Source: an uncultured Gammaproteobacteria bacterium (GTDB taxonomy: Bacteria; Patescibacteriota; Patescibacteriia; Magasanikbacterales; UBA922). From it: 64,000 nucleotides of DNA. Location of the stretch: assembly GCA_964394405.1 (NCBI GenBank), contig CAYMVY010000001.1, positions 102,546 through 166,545 on the forward strand, given 5' to 3'. Below, one piece after another: positions 5,963 through 63,649 of the stretch (within the stretch, counting starts at the first letter, position 1; each line of letters begins with the position of its first letter). Position numbers and translations under genes: made by a program. The notes beneath the pieces are model-generated. The model was not told where the DNA came from, ran no database searches, and was given only the letters and a program-made list of their open reading frames with translations.

Positions 5963-8836
5963 ATGAAACAAAATGACACCATAAAAATTGTTAATGCACG
6001 GGTACACAATCTCAAAAATGTATCGCTTGAAATTCCAAAAAACAAATTAGTCGTTATTACCGGTCTCTCTGGTTCGGGTAAATCTTCCCTCGCATTCGAC
6101 ACCATCTACGCCGAAGGACAGAGAAGATATGCCGAGAGTCTGAACGCGTATGCCCGCCAATTTATGGATATGCAGGATAAGCCAGACGCAGATGAAATTT
6201 CCGGCCTCTCTCCAACCATTGCAATAAATCAAAGAAATACGACCCAAAACCCACGTTCCACCGTGGGTACTGCAACTGAAATCTATGATTATCTCCGCCT
6301 ATTATTCGCGCGAATTGGAGTACAGTGGTGCCCTGCATGCAATATTCCCGTAACATCCTACAAACCCGGGGTCATCGTAGAAAAAATAAGAACATTGGGT
6401 AAAAAATCTCCCAACGCAGTATTACTCTCCCCTATTATCAGACAAGAGTCTATTACTACTAAGGAGCTGAAACATCGAGTAGAAAAGACCGGGTATCCTT
6501 CAGTACGATTAAACGGAATTGAAACTTCAGTAAAACAAATCCCCTCAGTCACACTCAACCCCTCGTACACCTATGATGTTGAAATTATTATCGGGGAACT
6601 CAAAAATCTACTCAAAGAATCATTTACCAAGCACGTACTCAAAGCACTCGACTTCTCAAACGGCTATATCACTCTCTATGATCCAGACACGGAAAAAGAA
6701 ATTTCTTTTTCCGAAGTACCCATGTGCAGTTCATGTAGCAGAACATTTTCGCATATTGAACCACGGTCTTTTAGCTTCAATAGCCCCTACGGCGCATGTC
6801 CGCGTTGTACTGGACTAGGGAAAACACTTGAAGTTGATCCAGAACTCGTCATTCCAAATCAAAAACTCACGATTAGCGAAGGGGCGGTACAGCCATGGAC
6901 ACGACTGGTCGGAAATAATACTGGACTCATGGAAATCCTGACCGAAGTGGCAGGAGTACATGGATTTTCACTCGATCGACCAATTGAGGAATTACCCCAG
7001 GCAACCATGGATATTATTCTCTATGGTACCGATGGACAGGAATACATAGTCAAAGGTAAAAAAACAAATTACGAGGGTGTAATCCCAAATCTCACTGCGC
7101 GGTATATTGAAACCAAATCAGAATATGTAAAAAAAGAAATCGAAGTATACATGCGTGAAAAACCATGCTCAGTCTGTGACACCAAACGTCTCAAAGAAGA
7201 TAGTCTAAATATCAAAATCACCGACTACTCAATAGCAGATGTAGCCGAAATGAGTCTCGAGGAATCATACGAAATATTCAAATCCCTTGAAACCCAAAAC
7301 TCAGCACTTGCAAAAAAACTCTCCAGCGATGAACGAACCATCGCAAAACCTATCGCGCTTGAAATCAGACGACGTATTGAACATCTACTCGATGTCGGTC
7401 TCGCCTATCTCACACTCGATCGATCACTGAATACACTCTCGGGTGGAGAATCACAGCGTGTCCGACTCTCGACACAGCTCTCAGCAGGGCTCTCAGGACT
7501 CATCTATATCCTTGACGAGCCTTCAATTGGACTTCATCCAAAAGATAATGGAAAACTCATCAATACGCTGATTTCACTTCGTGATGCCGGAAATACCGTA
7601 ATCGTGGTTGAACACGACAAGGCAATTATGCAGGCTGCCGATTATCTGATTGATATTGGCCCTGGAGCCGGAGAGTATGGTGGAGTGGTCATGGCTTCAG
7701 GTACTCCTGAACGAGTGATCAAGTCAGACAAATCTCTCACAGGCAGATATCTCTCCGGAGCTGAAGAAATAAAGCCGTTGGGAAAATTACGCAAAGGTAG
7801 TGGGAAAAAACTGACTATTCTTGGTGCAAAGGCTAACAACCTCAAAAATATTGATGTTGATATTCCGCTAGCCATGTTTGTGAGTATTACCGGTGTGTCT
7901 GGTTCAGGAAAATCAACACTCATTCTCGATATCTTAGGAAAAACACTTGAAAAGAAATTTTATCGCGCAAAAGATGAACCTGGTGAGCACAAAGATATCA
8001 AAGGACTATCAAATATTGATAAAGTCATTGCAATTGATCAAACCCCAATTGGACGAACTCCACGTAGTAACCCAGTTACCTATACTGGTATATTTACCAT
8101 GATTCGCGATCTCTACGCAGAGCTTCCAGAATCAAAAATGCGCGGATACCAGGCAGGCACATTTAGCTTCAATGTAAAGGGCGATGGGCGCTGTGAAGCA
8201 TGTGGCGGAGAAGGATATGTCACTATTCCCATGCATTTCTTGAACGATGTATTTGTCGAGTGTGGTGAATGTCATGGTACCCGCTATACGAGAGATGTAC
8301 TCGAGATCCACTACAAAGAAAAAAACATTGCTGAAGTCCTCAAAATGACCGTAGAAGAAGCATTCAAATTTTTCCAAGGAAAGACCCCAATCACTGATAA
8401 GCTCCAAATACTTCGAAATGTAGGTCTTGGATACGTCCAGCTGGGACAACCTGCCACCACCCTCTCGGGTGGAGAAGCGCAGAGAATCAAACTCGCAACC
8501 GAATTATCACGTCGATCAACTGGTAAAACTATCTATATTCTTGATGAACCTTCAACTGGTCTTCATTTCGAAGATATCAAAAAACTCCTACATGTGCTTC
8601 ACCAACTCGTGGATAAGGGAAATACCGTATTAGTGATCGAACACAATCTCGACATTATCAAATGTTCTGACTGGATTATTGATTTGGGCCCTGGAGGCGG
8701 AAAACATGGTGGTCGCGTAGTTGGATCAGGAACTCCAGATCAGATTCTCAAATCAAAAGAAAGTCTCACTGCAGAATATCTCAAAAAAGAACTAACCCAG
8801 CAAAGTAAAAAGGGGAAAGTAAAAAGGGGAAAGTAA
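5963..8836 (+). CDS. uvrA: Excinuclease ABC subunit A
   Basis: 957 aa. Two ABC modules ([23 protein letters not shown]; second Walker [11 protein letters not shown]), zinc-finger CxxC pairs and the LSGGE signature twice. Confidence 0.95.
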
Positions 8837-10969: not shown

Positions 10970-11054
10970 ATGTAAATGTATCCATACTAACAAAAAAAGG
11001 GGTTAAAATCAAGGACTTGAGTAAAACAAGATTTTGATATATACTTGTCATCAT

Positions 11055-11780
11055 ATGACTGATTCCAAACATAAATTCATGGTACAAAAAGCGCAGGAAC
11101 TCATGAAACTATCGAAAGACCCTATTCATGACCTGTCTCATGTAACACGTGTAGTTGCAAATGTACAAAAAATTGCACCTTCACTAAACCTTTCAAAAGA
11201 AGAAACAGACGCAATTGAGCTTGCAGCCTGGTGGCATGATGTTGCCCGAGTGCTCACCAAACAACCCTCATTTGTATGGATGGCATGCATTGATGACGCA
11301 GTATCTGCTCTCATGCTCTGTCTCCACAGTATCCGGTATGGTTTCTGGAGACACAGTGGTGGAATTGCAACAAAACTAATACTCTCAAAGACATTTGCCA
11401 CCGGAGCCGTATTCACCAAACTTCTCCTGTCAAAAAAAGAAAGATTAATGATGCATGTGTTACGGGATGCAGACCAGCTAGATGTGATGAATGCAGAGCG
11501 CCTTGCTCTCGTATGCGAGCTCTCAAAAACATCAAAAAAATATTTCTGGGGTCTGCAGTGTCTCATATTCTACAATACACGCCAATCTTCGTTAAAAATG
11601 AAAACCCCTGTTGCCAACACATATCTAGCTGAAGCAGTCGATGGAATCTACTACTGGATATGCGAGCGAAGATCTGATCCTTCCTATATAAATTTCTTTG
11701 GCCAAACTTGGATCGACAACTCAATAAAAAAATTTACAAGACTTCGTCAAAAATTAAATCCAATAAAAGAAGTGGCATAA
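11055..11780 (+). CDS. HD-domain phosphohydrolase family protein
   Basis: H...HD motif (LSHVTRV ... WWHDVARV). The ORF in the track begins with TTG at 11034; the first ATG is at 11055. Confidence 0.7.
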   Translation: MTDSKHKFMVQKAQELMKLSKDPIHDLSHVTRVVANVQKIAPSLNLSKEETDAIELAAWWHDVARVLTKQPSFVWMACIDDAVSALMLCLHSIRYGFWRHSGGIATKLILSKTFATGAVFTKLLLSKKERLMMHVLRDADQLDVMNAERLALVCELSKTSKKYFWGLQCLIFYNTRQSSLKMKTPVANTYLAEAVDGIYYWICERRSDPSYINFFGQTWIDNSIKKFTRLRQKLNPIKEVA

Positions 11781-11789
11781 GACATAATA

Positions 11790-12231
11790 AAAAAAAGAAG
11801 CGAAAAGCTTCTTTTTTGTTTTGTGAATCACAAAATTAATCATACAGAACTTATCCTGAATTTATCGAGAGAACGAAAAGCTAATTTTAGTTTCACCAAA
11901 ATTATAAGATAATTAATTAAATTTAATTTGTGATTTTCCATTTTTATTTCACAGTTGTATTATTTCTGTTATCTGTGTTTAAAAAATCTGTGCTAAAAGT
12001 TATTCACAGGTAAAAAGAAAAAAAACTTGTTTACTATTCAATAAAATAATAAAACAAAGTATACTTGTATCACAAAGGTCGTTTGTATTTGCAAATAGAT
12101 TTTTACGTCAATGCTTGTCATGTAAAAACTTTTGCACTACTGTGTTTGCGTGATCACTTGGTGTGCACCATGGTCACATCATCATTAACAAACACACACA
12201 TCTTAAATTAGAGAGGAGGTGTACAATAAGT
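11790..12231. promoter_or_regulatory. Unusually long (about 440 bp) very AT-rich intergenic region with many TGTGA/TCACA motifs, ending in a strong SD (GAGAGGAGGTG) for the small basic ORF
   Basis: At least 8 TGTGA/TCACA occurrences, including tgtgaatcaca, ttattcaca, gtgatcac and ggtcaca. SD is 8 nt upstream of ATG at 12232. Confidence 0.35.
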
Positions 12232-12357
12232 ATGCCAGCAAAAAGAAAACGCAAGGCAGCAGCTCCAAAAAAGCGCAAAGCAGCTAAAAGAAAGCCAGCT
12301 AAACGCAAAGCTGCTCGAAAGCCAGCTAAACGCCGCAAAGCCTCAAAGAAAAGATAG
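12232..12357 (+). CDS. 41-aa lysine/arginine/alanine-rich basic protein (histone H1/Hc1-like PAKRK repeats)
   Basis: MPAKRKRKAAAPKKRKAAKRKPAKRKAARKPAKRRKASKKR. Consensus SD upstream and a perfect terminator immediately downstream. Confidence 0.55.
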   Translation: MPAKRKRKAAAPKKRKAAKRKPAKRKAARKPAKRRKASKKR

Positions 12358-12371
12358 TCTTTTCTAGAGTT

Positions 12372-12404
12372 AAAACCCTGCACCATATATGGTGCAGGGT
12401 TTTT
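12372..12404. terminator. Rho-independent terminator (shared by convergent genes)
   Basis: aaaaccctgcaccatatatggtgcagggttttt: perfect 9-bp stem with A/T runs on both sides. Confidence 0.85.
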
Positions 12405-12422
12405 GTATATAAAATTATCTGT

Positions 12423-13709
12423 TTATTCCAAACCTAGGCTCACTTGGGTTGACAGGCCTCGAGATTCACTCTCCCCAAACACTTTGACAATACCAAACTC
12501 ACCGTCATACCCAGGACGGATATAGATATTTCCTTTTCTTACCCGATCAATGGCAGTGGCAATCATTTCGCTTGATGCATTCTGTATTTCTTGAAGTCCT
12601 GCATGGAGTAAAATAAAAAATTCACTGCCGAATTTTTCAACCAGCGAATTATACTCAGTAATCACTTTTTTTGAAGAAACACCAACCTGGTACACATCTG
12701 CAATAATCTCTGGAAGTGGAACAAGAGATTTAAACGGAATACGTTTTGTCTGAAACGCATGCTCTCTCGCTTCATCACTCGTTCGATCAGCAAGTTCGTG
12801 CACTCGATATTCCACTCCAATCGTTAACTGTTTCCCACACACCGGGCATACACCTTTTCTTTTTCTCGTTTCTTCAGGATTACAATAGAACTTACAATCT
12901 CGATGACCATCATAATGATATTTCCCCTCTTCGGGATAAAATTCAATCGTATACGCAAACTTGTTTGTATCCTGTTCTTCAATAATACGAAATATTTCAC
13001 TATACGTAGCTTCTTCTGCTGAATTGAATTGTAGAACATTCGCCTCTCGACCCAACTTCTGCAAACTATGTGCATCAGAACTTGAAACAAGCGCAATATT
13101 ATCAAGATGTGACCACCTCCAATTCATGAGGGGATCACTTGAAAGCCCAGTCTCAATCGCACGAATATATGGTGCGAGGTCTTCGAATGCTTCGTTAATC
13201 GAATTATACCCGCCTTTAGAGCCAAAAATTCCAAACCAAGGAGTCCAGGCATGTGCCGGGATCATTTTCATCCGAGGATCGACTTCGAGCATGAGTTCAA
13301 GAATCTGTTTTGACGTAAGCCCGATAATTGGTCGACCGTCTGAGCGAATATTGAACCCTCTGGTTTCCAAAACATGATTAAACTTTTCTGCAGACTCCAA
13401 ATTAGGAGCAAAAACAAGCAAATGAACACGCCGTGTCTGGTCCCCATGCTTTTTAATTGACGCAATCTCAGTGCCAATAATAAATCGCGTCTTACTTTCA
13501 TGATTTTTGAGCTTATAAATGCCCTCAATATCCGGGATAAGCTCACTCTTCATATGGTCAAACCATTTTGGATGAGTGAAGTCACTAGTAACCATGATAT
13601 CAACACCACGAACTTCGCAGGCTCTAGCAATTTTGGGCAACTCAAGATCTTTTGAGCAAGCTCGTGAATATTTGGAATGTGCATGCAAGTCGAGGACCTT
13701 CTGAATCAT
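12423..13709 (-). CDS. Endonuclease Q-like PHP-domain nuclease with C4 zinc finger
   Basis: From internal ATG: MIQKVLDLHAHSKYSRACSKD... Motifs VTSDFTHPKW, RVHLLVFAP, IPAHAWTPW, SSSDAHS..LGREANVL, GVCPVCGKQ, ELAD and LPEIIADV, in the order and spacing I recall for archaeal EndoQ. Length about 428 aa. Confidence 0.6.
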   Translation of the reverse strand: MIQKVLDLHAHSKYSRACSKDLELPKIARACEVRGVDIMVTSDFTHPKWFDHMKSELIPDIEGIYKLKNHESKTRFIIGTEIASIKKHGDQTRRVHLLVFAPNLESAEKFNHVLETRGFNIRSDGRPIIGLTSKQILELMLEVDPRMKMIPAHAWTPWFGIFGSKGGYNSINEAFEDLAPYIRAIETGLSSDPLMNWRWSHLDNIALVSSSDAHSLQKLGREANVLQFNSAEEATYSEIFRIIEEQDTNKFAYTIEFYPEEGKYHYDGHRDCKFYCNPEETRKRKGVCPVCGKQLTIGVEYRVHELADRTSDEAREHAFQTKRIPFKSLVPLPEIIADVYQVGVSSKKVITEYNSLVEKFGSEFFILLHAGLQEIQNASSEMIATAIDRVRKGNIYIRPGYDGEFGIVKVFGESESRGLSTQVSLGLE

Positions 13710-13753
13710 AAAATGAAGTATAGTTCTCCCCCTAGTCACAAGTAATAGGAAAA

Positions 13754-14110
13754 TTAGGTAAGAGAAGTGAGATGCAAACAAATAACAAATATCTTGTCTG
13801 TCACTTTTTCTCGTTCTTCTAAAATTTGAATGCGAGTAAATTTGACGATCGTATAACCTCGACCAAGTAGCCAATCCTCACGATACCCATCGCGTTCTCC
13901 CTCTACTACCTCTTCAACCACTTCTACAATAAGCTTCAACTCAGAACAATAAAAATCCACGCTATATGGCCCCAATGAAACCTGCGACTTGAACTTATAC
14001 CGCACACTATTTTTTGCAAGTTCCTGCCAAAGTACACAAAATGCGGCAGAAAGAGAAAAAGAGCCTTCGCGATGTTCCAAGGTTTTGTCGTAGAATTGTA
14101 CTTTTTTCAT
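13754..14110 (-). CDS. DUF559 / Vsr-like (very-short-patch-repair-type) endonuclease-fold protein
   Basis: From internal ATG MKKVQFYDK...; core YSVDFYCSELKLIVEVVEE is typical of DUF559. Confidence 0.65.
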   Translation of the reverse strand: MKKVQFYDKTLEHREGSFSLSAAFCVLWQELAKNSVRYKFKSQVSLGPYSVDFYCSELKLIVEVVEEVVEGERDGYREDWLLGRGYTIVKFTRIQILEEREKVTDKIFVICLHLTSLT

Positions 14111-14179
14111 ACCCCTCCAATTATACGTAATATAAATTACTGTATACCCTTTAGACACGTTGTTCAATGATCCGTACAA

Positions 14180-15127
14180 TTACCATCTTCCAGAAGCTCC
14201 GCCACCACCAGATGAACCACCGCCAAATCCTCCAAAACCACCACTTGATTTTCCCCCACCTCCACCAAACCCGCCACCGCCAAATCCTCCACCAGTCCAT
14301 CCACCAGATCGAGGTGGCCAATTTTTCTTCCCCTCCTTGCTTATTTTTTCTGCACTCTCACGAAATTTTCTGAATTGTGGAAGCCGTGAGACAGCCCAAT
14401 CCACCAACAAACCAAAACCAAAACCAAACACTCCGCCGAGAAGTACAGTATTGGTAATCATACCCACCAGAGCTCCGAGTCCCCCGCCGACAATACCTCC
14501 GGCTACAAATGATCTTGAGCGAGAAAGTTGTAAAAATACTTGAGAAAAAACGGTAAATATGATACTTCCTGCAATAATTAAAACAAAAATTGCAGCAAAC
14601 CAACCCGCGACTCCGTCATCATATGCGGGAGCGATATATTCCCCTTCAACTGCTTGCGTGATAGCGATCGTAGCCTCCTCAATCCCCGTACTAAAATCTC
14701 CTGTTTTAAAAGCTGGGATAAGAATAGTGTCAATAATCTGTGAAGTTTCAAAATCGGTAAGCGCACCCTCCAATCCATACCCGACCTCAATTCTCACTTC
14801 GCGTTCGTTCGGCGCTACTAATAGCAAGATGCCATTATCTTGTTTTGCTGCGCCAACTCCCCAAAACTCAAACAATCCAATAGCATATTCCTCAATGGTG
14901 AAATCTTCCAGTGAAGAAACTGTAGCTACCGCAATCTCACTTGTAGAAGTTACCGCAAGAGCGCTGAGGCGATCAGTAATGCGCGCCTCAACCATAGCAT
15001 CAATAACCCCTGCATCATCAACTACAAATCCAGTTGGCTGAGGGTAGGTAGGGGCTGTATATGCAGTCTGCACCCATACAAAAGATACTACGATGACAGA
15101 TGTAATCGCATGCAAAATTCGCCGCAT
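14180..15127 (-). CDS. TPM-domain (TLP18.3/Psb32/YgcG-like) membrane protein with glycine-rich C-terminal tail
   Basis: Signal/TM, a TPM-like domain (TGFVVDDAGVI ... LLLVAPNEREVRIEVGYGLEG), a TM segment, then a GGFGGGG-repeat tail. Confidence 0.8.
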   Translation of the reverse strand: MRRILHAITSVIVVSFVWVQTAYTAPTYPQPTGFVVDDAGVIDAMVEARITDRLSALAVTSTSEIAVATVSSLEDFTIEEYAIGLFEFWGVGAAKQDNGILLLVAPNEREVRIEVGYGLEGALTDFETSQIIDTILIPAFKTGDFSTGIEEATIAITQAVEGEYIAPAYDDGVAGWFAAIFVLIIAGSIIFTVFSQVFLQLSRSRSFVAGGIVGGGLGALVGMITNTVLLGGVFGFGFGLLVDWAVSRLPQFRKFRESAEKISKEGKKNWPPRSGGWTGGGFGGGGFGGGGGKSSGGFGGFGGGSSGGGGASGRW

Positions 15128-32284: not shown

Positions 32285-35650
<3,366 letters not shown>

Positions 35651-62510: not shown

Positions 62511-62609
62511 ATGATTCTAAAAAACTGCCCGAAAGGGTGGTTTTTTGTTTATAAAATTTTCCTTGCCCTATACCCTTTTTTCTGTTACGATTCTACCAAT
62601 TCACTTCCT

Positions 62610-63173
62610 ATGATACTCTCAGACAAAGACATCAAAATTTCGCTAGAAAAAGGAGAAGTAACTATAACTCCTTATAGCGAACAATATCTACAGCCCGCAT
62701 CAGTTGATCTGCACCTTGATAAACATTTTCTGATATTCGATACACACAAATATTCAGTAATTGATCCGAAACTCCCCATTGATGAAATGATGCGCCCGAT
62801 AGAAATCACTGATGACGGATATTTCGTTCTCCATCCCGGAGAATTTGCGCTTGGTCTTATCTACGAAACCACCGGTGTATCAGATTCATATGTGGGAAGA
62901 CTGGAAGGAAAAAGTTCAGTAGGACGATTAGGGTTATTGATCCACGTAACAGCAGGTTTTCTCGATCCGGGTAACTCACTCAAGATGACACTCGAACTTC
63001 ACAATACCGCAAATATGCCAATCAAACTGTATTACAAAATGCCCATCGCGCAAATCGCTTTTGAAAAAATAAGTTCACCTGCAGAAAAACCATACAATCA
63101 AATGGGTAATGCCAAATATATTGGCGATATGAAACCAAAAGCGAGTCAGATGTGGAAAAATTTTTCTAAATAA
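62610..63173 (+). CDS. dcd: dCTP deaminase
   Basis: From internal ATG MILSDKDIKISLEKGEVTITPY...SVDLHLD ... GRLEGKSSVGRLGL, the Dcd signature. Confidence 0.85.
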   Translation: MILSDKDIKISLEKGEVTITPYSEQYLQPASVDLHLDKHFLIFDTHKYSVIDPKLPIDEMMRPIEITDDGYFVLHPGEFALGLIYETTGVSDSYVGRLEGKSSVGRLGLLIHVTAGFLDPGNSLKMTLELHNTANMPIKLYYKMPIAQIAFEKISSPAEKPYNQMGNAKYIGDMKPKASQMWKNFSK

Positions 63174-63175
63174 AT

Positions 63176-63649
63176 ATGCCGACAGAAGCTAGACAAGAAT
63201 ACATCTCATGGGACGAATGCTTTATGCGCATGGCGCATGTGATTGCTGAGCGTTCAAAAGACCCCTCTACCCAGGCTGGGTCAGTAATTGCAGACGCAAA
63301 AAACGTTGTCGTAGGCCTGGGATATAACGGGTTTCCACGAAGTATTGATAATGACGCATTCCCCTGGGACCGGGAAGGTGGATTTCTTGAGACCAAATAC
63401 GCCTATGTGTGTCATGCTGAAGAAAACGCAATATACAATGCCAATAAAGCGACTCATGGATGCAAACTCTACTGCACACTTTTCCCCTGTAATGAATGCG
63501 CAAAAACCATTGTACAAAACGGAATTACTGAAATAATTTATGAGAGCGATAAATATCATGATACTGATAGTTGTATCGCCTCACGTAGAATTCTTGAGGC
63601 AGCAGGTGTTACGTATCGACAATATATATCTGACTGGGCAGACAAATAA
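63176..63649 (+). CDS. dCMP (deoxycytidylate) deaminase, CDA-fold zinc enzyme
   Basis: CHAEENAI ... PCNECAKTI zinc-binding motifs. Confidence 0.85.
   Translation: MPTEARQEYISWDECFMRMAHVIAERSKDPSTQAGSVIADAKNVVVGLGYNGFPRSIDNDAFPWDREGGFLETKYAYVCHAEENAIYNANKATHGCKLYCTLFPCNECAKTIVQNGITEIIYESDKYHDTDSCIASRRILEAAGVTYRQYISDWADK

Follow-up and report, generated by a model that had tools for sequence, protein, structure and literature searches.

A probable bacterial-type endonuclease Q and its gene neighbourhood in a Magasanikbacteria-like Patescibacteria contig

We analysed a 64,000-nt stretch of DNA (the window; positions 102,546 to 166,545 of contig CAYMVY010000001.1, assembly GCA_964394405.1) and in particular a minus-strand gene at 12423-13709, which encodes a 428-aa protein resembling endonuclease Q (EndoQ). 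A small gene with a DUF559 domain lies directly upstream of it, and on its 3' side there is an intrinsic terminator followed by a short convergent open reading frame (ORF). A first-pass annotation, made from the letters alone, had read this arrangement as an EndoQ-like nuclease within an inserted deamination-repair module. The long minus-strand ORF spans 12423-13874 and its sensible start is the ATG at 13709, from which the protein begins MIQKVLDLHAHS. The N-terminus fits the consensus MIxKILDLHIHS of 73 homologues. In a public assembly with identical DNA, the EndoQ and DUF559 genes were called at the same lengths (428 and 118 aa). The gene and the parts of its product are listed below, with domains placed by residue mapping onto the Pyrococcus furiosus enzyme (PfuEndoQ).

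12423..13709, minus strand: gene for an EndoQ of the bacterial type, 428 aa and a stop codon
12936..13709, minus strand: PHP catalytic domain, residues 1-258
12720..12935, minus strand: Zn-binding domain, residues 259-330, with the HxxC...CxxC knuckle at nt 12837-12905
12477..12719, minus strand: C-terminal helical domain, residues 331-411, with LPEIIADV, aligned to PfuEndoQ 304-383
12426..12446, minus strand: tail motif Q422-V-S-L-G-L-E428 in the disordered tail, resembling a beta-clamp-binding motif

Homology, predicted fold and active-site residues of EndoQ

A phmmer search against all PDB sequences matched the protein to PfuEndoQ (5zb8, 7k30-33) at an E-value of 2.8e-46, in a single alignment of query residues 7-411 with chain residues 6-383. 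No other PHP subfamily gave a better match, since EndoQ itself gives the best matches in both sequence and structure, and the PHP, Zn-binding and C-terminal helical domains all align. The EndoQ homology proposed in the first-pass annotation was therefore confirmed. The motifs on which it had been based (DLHAHSKYS, IPAHAWTPW, SSSDAHS, HELAD and LPEIIADV) are all present, and their PfuEndoQ counterparts read DLHIHSHYS, GPAHAFTPW, SNSDAHS, LELAD and LAEIIAMV. NCBIfam model TIGR00375, a hypothetical-equivalog model that takes in M. jannaschii MJ0043, was matched at E 3.4e-51 (174.8 bits) over profile positions 3-372 of 374. Precomputed annotation assigns Pfam PF27218 (MJ0043_C) to the identical database protein P0001 and to all 120 homologues listed; a Pfam scan of the 428-aa protein with a set lacking PF27218 gave sub-threshold matches only (HMBD, PHP_C and RAG1_imp_bd). 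The NCBI name "endonuclease Q family protein" has been given to several relatives at 62-82% identity.

An AlphaFold2 model was built on the 73-sequence alignment. It reached a mean predicted local distance difference test score (pLDDT) of 92 and a predicted template-modelling score (pTM) of 0.90, with disorder confined to residues 421-428 (pLDDT < 50) and C-terminal helices modelled at residues 332-340, 347-360, 363-368, 372-378 and 381-392. When the model was compared with the PDB by Foldseek, the top match was 5zb8_A (E 9e-36; TM-score 0.82 by query, TMq, and 0.88 by target, TMt; root-mean-square deviation 2.6 Å over 411 columns; 30% identity). Superposition on PfuEndoQ, which had been suggested as a check, thus supports EndoQ at the level of the predicted fold.

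Residue roles were taken from the PfuEndoQ structure paper (PMC5961232), and that of S171 as the discriminating pocket residue of PfuEndoQ from a review (PMC8307549). The domain borders of PfuEndoQ at 238/239 and 303/304 fall at 258/259 and 330/331 in the window protein. The metal-binding and catalytic residues H9, H11, E81, H96, R126, H153, D212 and H214 correspond to PfuEndoQ H8, H10, E76, H84, R114, H139, D193 and H195 and are identical. So are the lesion-pocket residues T156, E186, G188, L189 and S190 (PfuEndoQ T142, E167, G169, L170 and S171) and the wedge W158 (PfuEndoQ W144). Two pocket positions that contribute main chain only differ (PfuEndoQ L168 and N191, T187 and S210 in the window). 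All 14 mapped catalytic, pocket and wedge residues were invariant in the 73 Patescibacteria homologues (64-82% identity); in 108 distant helicase-fused homologues the same residues were invariant except W158, which was Trp in 99.

The zinc finger had been described as CxxC...CxxC. Its second half is indeed CxxC (C288 and C291), but the first half is HxxC (H269 and C272): PfuEndoQ C249, C252, C268 and C271 align with H269, C272, C288 and C291 to give H-R-D-C ... C-P-V-C. The four residues were invariant in the 73 homologues. Of the 150 nearest 50%-cluster representatives, 146 had His at the first position; this His was also seen in Zixibacteria, Spirochaetota, other Patescibacteria and one homologue from an archaeal metagenome-assembled genome (MAG). 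All four knuckle positions are zinc-competent, in an HC3 form for which metal binding is predicted from sequence; the strict C4 form occurs only in the archaeal reference. Cys276, which makes a CxxxC, is nearly invariant in the close set, but the fused proteins have L, W, M or F at this position. Because they do not keep it, Cys276 is unlikely to be a ligand.

The disordered tail ends in a short motif of a kind common to most homologues, with the pattern Q-x-x-[LFMI]-x-[LIF]. Q-x-x-L-x-[LFIM] was present within the last 10 residues of 43 of the 73 homologues, and more have F, M or I at the fourth position. Tails of standalone bacterial homologues end in DQLGLFG, KQASLF... or KQTTIF. Bacterial beta-clamp-binding penta- and hexapeptides follow QL[SD]LF and QLxLxL. 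In archaeal EndoQ, a C-terminal PCNA-interacting peptide (PIP) box binds PCNA, which stimulates the enzyme, and a beta-clamp consensus at the C-termini of bacterial EndoQ homologues was noted in the same work (PMC4858679). The clamp-like tail thus agrees with the literature and is not new.

A mechanism can be drawn from the characterised archaeal and Bacillus enzymes (PMC4357722, PMC5961232, PMC6202378 and PMC8307549). [quoted passage not shown] The Zn site of the PHP domain (H9, H11, E81, H96, H153 and D212, with R126 and H214) would then hydrolyse the phosphodiester immediately 5' of the lesion. The nick would be handled by nick translation with a 5'-3' exonuclease, or by strand displacement, and then by ligase; these enzymes were not identified in the window. 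Through its tail QVSLGLE, EndoQ is probably tethered to the beta sliding clamp, much like archaeal EndoQ to PCNA through the PIP box. We infer the enzymatic activity and substrate range of the window protein from the characterised enzymes.

PfuEndoQ (PF1551; PDB 5ZB8, 7K30-7K33) has the same three-domain architecture (PMC5961232) and is ~30% identical over the full length. Both proteins have a disordered C-terminal tail with a sliding-clamp motif, putative in the window protein, where QVSLGLE is beta-clamp-like and the PfuEndoQ counterpart QRTLLQYI is a PIP box. The window protein differs from PfuEndoQ by a short PHP insertion at residues ~82-88 (ASIKKHG..) and a few other small indels, and its host is a mesophile-type member of the Patescibacteria, whereas PfuEndoQ comes from a hyperthermophilic archaeon. 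The EndoQ proteins of Bacillus pumilus and B. subtilis were reportedly characterised by Shiraishi et al. in 2017 (cited in PMC6202378). Bacillus EndoQ is, by description, similar to the window protein in being a standalone bacterial enzyme; it nicks 5' of dU, dI, dX and AP sites and belongs to a different phylum-level lineage. Archaeal enzymes and that of B. pumilus have demonstrated EndoQ activity (PMC6202378).

For the window EndoQ, homology, fold, residue conservation and synteny (see below) were established directly. We consider it very probable that the 428-aa gene, passed down vertically, specifies a working endonuclease Q of the bacterial type in a Magasanikbacteria-like bacterium within Patescibacteria (CPR, the Candidate Phyla Radiation). 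Four points weigh against this. The profile search suggested in the first-pass annotation bore the assignment out in the near full-length TIGR00375 match and in PF27218, but the TIGR00375 score falls short of the model's trusted 326.6-bit cutoff, which makes the protein a diverged bacterial subfamily member of EndoQ, not a TIGR00375 equivalog. The first zinc ligand is His269 where the solved PfuEndoQ has Cys. The putative clamp motif QVSLGLE departs from QL[SD]LF and QLxLxL at position 2, which is not Leu. The activity of Patescibacteria EndoQ would be that of the archaeal and Bacillus enzymes, from which it is taken by analogy. The gene is a conserved and already annotated housekeeping member of a known family.

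Distribution of EndoQ and its helicase fusions in bacteria

The first-pass annotation had called EndoQ rare in bacteria, a claim that the database counts contradict. A word-indexed search of 90%-identity clusters (E <= 1e-5) returned at least 8000 matches. The best 120 of these were all 410-449 aa long and most had no name; the names given were "DNA helicase UvrD", an older one, and "endonuclease Q family protein", and every source name among them that gave a taxon was Magasanikbacteria, Parcubacteria or "Patescibacteria group". Among 1.84 billion 50%-cluster representatives, an exhaustive phmmer search gave 3452 matches at E <= 1e-3 and 921 at E <= 1e-30. Matches to contigs with EndoQ at 73-83% identity were Magasanikbacteria MAGs. 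By the numbers of clusters and representatives, EndoQ is not rare in the Patescibacteria lineage.

[quoted passage not shown] In the databases, by comparison, Patescibacteria homologues number in the thousands, and EndoQ-UvrD fusions from elsewhere in bacteria make up a large set. In genome-reduced CPR bacteria, a single clamp-tethered nuclease for uracil, hypoxanthine and AP sites could cheaply replace several glycosylases.

The EndoQ-UvrD/PcrA fusions (~900-1250 aa; Spirochaetota and other bacteria) have an EndoQ domain 44-51% identical to the window protein, with the same HxxC...CxxC and the same catalytic residues. They differ in carrying a C-terminal superfamily 1 (SF1) helicase (UvrD-helicase plus UvrD_C), which the window protein lacks, and in the place of the Q..LF-type motif, which lies at the domain junction in the fusions and at the C-terminus in the window EndoQ. 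Most of the nearest relatives outside Patescibacteria have a C-terminal extension on the EndoQ domain: 122 of the 150 closest 50%-cluster representatives, which are 43-54% identical, were at least 700 aa long (P0123-P0270 set). Four long ones were scanned (P0123, P0127, P0129 and P0211); all matched Pfam UvrD-helicase, three also matched UvrD_C (P0129 did not), and in all four the UvrD/PcrA-type SF1 helicase is C-terminal to the EndoQ domain. Two Spirochaetota loci (L016:6001-9165 and L017:5983-9288) encode fusions of 1054 and 1101 aa with GQDELF at the junction, and a Walker A motif was present in 101 of 108 fusions. The fusions explain the legacy name "DNA helicase UvrD" on standalone 428-aa EndoQ proteins, and they suggest a nick-then-unwind excision pathway in the bacteria that bear them. 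Among the papers returned by literature searches for an EndoQ-helicase fusion, none was about one by its title or abstract.

One 834-aa homologue (P0134) contains an intein with a LAGLIDADG homing-endonuclease domain at about residue 152, inside the PAHAWTPW active-site motif. The archaeal homologue MJ0043 also has an intein, according to the description of TIGR00375.

The DUF559 neighbour and the layout of the locus

The features flanking the EndoQ gene on its two sides are as follows.

13754..14110, minus strand: DUF559-domain gene, 118 aa, 44 nt upstream of EndoQ, ribosome-binding site (RBS) GGAGGGG before the ATG
12372..12403, both strands: bidirectional intrinsic terminator, 14-bp stem plus 4-nt loop, with an A-run and a T-run on either side
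12232..12357, plus strand: 41-aa basic ORF, 59% K+R, strong RBS GAGGAGG upstream

The first-pass annotation had placed a Vsr-like DUF559 endonuclease next to EndoQ. The DUF559 gene is real: its product matched Pfam DUF559 (PF04480) at E 3.4e-16 (59.5 bits vs. a cutoff of 20.6) and aligned to PDB 3hrl over residues 19-110 (E 2.2e-8). A PDB profile search with alignment A1 was discarded as circular (3HRL is in the alignment) and added nothing. No match to Vsr itself (PF03852) was found for the protein at E <= 0.1 in Pfam or NCBIfam; "Vsr-like" holds for DUF559 at the level of clan and fold only (PMC3424549). The active site is another matter. Within the PD-(D/E)XK clan of DUF559 and Vsr (PF04480; 3HRL; E. 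coli Vsr), the motif comparison was made with one solved member (3HRL) and the family consensus. The window reads VD52F ... IVE63VVEEVVE against VDF ... IVEADGGQH in 3hrl, so that the VDF aspartate is kept and the DG..H is gone, as it is in all eight orthologues. Four of the eight (L003, L006, L007 and L012) have I, L or F in place of the glutamate, which is E63 in the window protein.

A DUF559 orthologue lies directly upstream of EndoQ in eight of nine close relatives (seven of them tested with Pfam, E 6e-7 to 5e-19), and in the ninth, L004, EndoQ is present and the DUF559 gene absent. Between genomes whose EndoQ proteins share 73-83% identity, the DUF559 proteins share only 32-48%. A word-index search with the protein found 2 homologues among 5.8 billion clustered proteins, and a profile search found no DUF559 within ~6 kb of EndoQ at 16 other loci. 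In a relative with 66% EndoQ identity, the 143-aa protein upstream of EndoQ was considered as a diverged DUF559 and rejected, as it had no similarity and no Pfam match. The degenerate motif, the fast evolution, the loss in L004 and the restriction to a narrow clade argue against an active, coupled Vsr-like nuclease. Judged from its sequence, the DUF559 protein is probably a clade-restricted, fast-evolving and non-catalytic remnant of the Vsr fold; it is likely co-transcribed with EndoQ and is not needed for EndoQ function. It might instead serve as a lineage-specific non-catalytic partner of EndoQ, e.g., a Vsr-fold subunit that binds mismatches or lesions or has a regulatory role. We think this very unlikely; if it held, a nucleotide-incision repair enzyme would have taken on a dead Vsr-like domain.

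The DUF559 ORF stays open, and in the alignment of L001-L012 its last 11 codons (K-I-F-x-V-C-L-H-L-S-S; 13754-13800) are conserved together with the DNA beneath. Sitting directly before the start of EndoQ, the conserved DNA might coincide in part with a promoter or 5' element of that gene. A search for an embedded EndoQ promoter under VCLHLSS found no convincing -35/-10 pair.

Nine close-relative loci share the order methyltransferase-RluA ... LemA-TPM ... DUF559-EndoQ-basic ORF-HD-RluD. The order is complete in most of them; L004 is without DUF559 and RluD falls past the end of L002. Neighbouring proteins are 54-92% identical across these loci. In the relative with 66% EndoQ identity, the order GlmS-HAD-CofD-acetyltransferase (GNAT) ... 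EndoQ ... HD-CE-RluD-guanylate kinase-L19 ... UvrA is still recognisable, and elements of this GlmS-to-UvrA frame were also found in the window.

A perfect terminator and a tiny histone-like ORF had been noted as flanking the gene pair upstream. Both exist, but they are placed downstream: they have lower coordinates and EndoQ is on the minus strand, hence both are 3' of EndoQ. The hairpin at 12372-12403 is a perfect 16+16-nt palindrome (100% complementary), with a minimum free energy of -23.8 kcal/mol and z -7.1 for the minus strand, and of -23.7 kcal/mol and z -5.5 for the plus strand; none of 200 shuffled sequences was as stable. A permissive Rfam scan of 11700-14300 gave chance-level matches only, on the terminator hairpin. 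The 41-aa ORF starts MPAKRKRKAAAPKKRK (MPAKRKRKAAAPKKRKAAKRK) and converges on the EndoQ terminator, so that the hairpin is common to both genes. Orthologous ORFs of 33-42 aa with 54-64% K+R occur at the same position in ten loci (L001-L008, L010 and L012), down to 62% EndoQ identity. The exact 41-aa sequence was absent from a collection of 15 billion proteins, which indicates that the ORF is probably an unannotated gene for a small basic protein, perhaps nucleoid-associated or histone H1-like. It is a conserved neighbour, and no evidence links its function to EndoQ.

Next to it there is a convergent gene on the plus strand for a 248-aa HD-domain protein (11034-11780), with weak HD-CE/HD matches (E 1e-3) and a hairpin terminator of its own at 11783-11825. 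Close relatives have the HD protein at 62-86% identity, and it is still found where EndoQ identity is down to 66%. On the other side, the TPM_phosphatase-family protein, whose C-terminus lies at 14180-14330 on the minus strand, has a tail of Gly-rich repeats (GGFGGGGFGGGGGKSSGGFGGFGGGSSGGGGASG), for which the DNA shows imperfect direct repeats of 24-36 nt; the match with relatives ends at about residue 273. Between the TPM gene and DUF559, relatives (L001:3982-5610; L002-L007 and L012) have two genes that the window lacks at 14110-14180, one succinate-CoA-ligase-alpha-like (298 aa) and one citryl-CoA-lyase-like (240 aa). The window is also without some 1.6 kb that relatives have between RluA and LemA.

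Alternative readings and other genes in the window

The EndoQ-DUF559 pair had been proposed as a horizontally acquired, self-contained deamination-repair module, in which the DUF559 protein would be an active Vsr-like nuclease on T:G or U:G mismatches. The two genes do share a strand, the 44 nt that separate them contain no terminator, and their adjacency is kept in eight of the nine closest relatives. The DUF559 frame has also stayed open at 32-48% identity, and the window copy retains D52 and E63 of the putative metal site. These observations are outweighed by the loss of DG..H in every orthologue and of the glutamate in half of them, by EndoQ standing without a DUF559 gene in L004 and, within ~6 kb, at the 16 other loci, and by the unrelated gene found upstream at 66% EndoQ identity. 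The surroundings are syntenic, and the G+C content of 12-14 kb (0.38-0.41) is unremarkable, in the lower part of the window range of 0.34-0.51. A repeat search found no direct repeats bracketing the pair, and there is no integrase or transposase near the locus. The idea of an inserted module is largely refuted by these results and we regard it as highly improbable. The case shows that a sequence-only reading can spot EndoQ and removes the speculative "inserted repair module"; by itself it carries little weight.

It is very unlikely that EndoQ serves mainly as an anti-phage nuclease against uracil-containing or base-modified phage DNA and not in host repair. The PHP region does have a weak NCBIfam match to the anti-phage protein Ppl (E 0.006), but the score is far under the cutoff (14.5 vs. 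1000 bits). A PADLOC scan of EndoQ and four neighbours (the DUF559, HD, TPM and LemA proteins) found nothing but a weak HD-domain match of the HD protein to Cas3g. The locus lies in stable housekeeping surroundings (rRNA-modification enzymes, GlmS and UvrA), not in a variable defence island, and the clamp-binding-like tail suits replication-coupled repair. The protein could also be another PHP phosphoesterase with a superficial resemblance to EndoQ, such as an RNase AM/TrpH-like nucleotidase or a PolX-type PHP exonuclease. The Pfam set without an EndoQ model yielded only sub-threshold matches (PHP_C, E 0.012), and the TIGR00375 score under its trusted cutoff points the same way. Other PHP folds (PsfC, TM0559, RNase AM and BAD_1165), however, gave TMq values of 0.27-0.35 (E >= 5.6e-7 for the last three), compared with 0.79-0.83 for EndoQ chains; moreover, the EndoQ-specific pocket and wedge residues are all present and MJ0043_C is assigned in the precomputed annotation. 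This reading is already refuted by the best matches to EndoQ, and its probability is close to nil. A vertically inherited EndoQ acting in host repair is the reading that we retain.

Two genes of pyrimidine metabolism near the end of the window had been cited as fitting a need to cope with uracil in DNA.

62511-63173 (ORF containing the gene): dcd (dCTP deaminase), TIGR02274 matched from residue 35, MILSDKDI, 180.5 bits vs. a cutoff of 92.8
63176-63649: CMP/dCMP-deaminase-fold gene, ComEB-like, below cutoff

Both genes are in the window, the second as a dCMP-deaminase-like gene, but the proposed link to EndoQ does not hold: they are 49 kb away with no positional tie. dcd and dCMP deaminase are standard routes to dUMP for thymidylate synthesis. 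The two genes are ordinary nucleotide metabolism and do not set this genome apart. Near the locus, only UvrA (5963-8836) is otherwise a clear gene of DNA repair. Signatures of uracil-DNA glycosylase (UDG), EndoV, Nfo and Xth were sought in the window at the level of motifs and nothing convincing turned up, a weak negative that covers 64 kb only.

A 23S rRNA match on the minus strand (32297-35639) spans 3343 nt, compared with the 2925 positions of the bacterial large-subunit (LSU) model, which indicates ~400 nt inserted in one or more places. Insertions are common in Patescibacteria rRNA genes.

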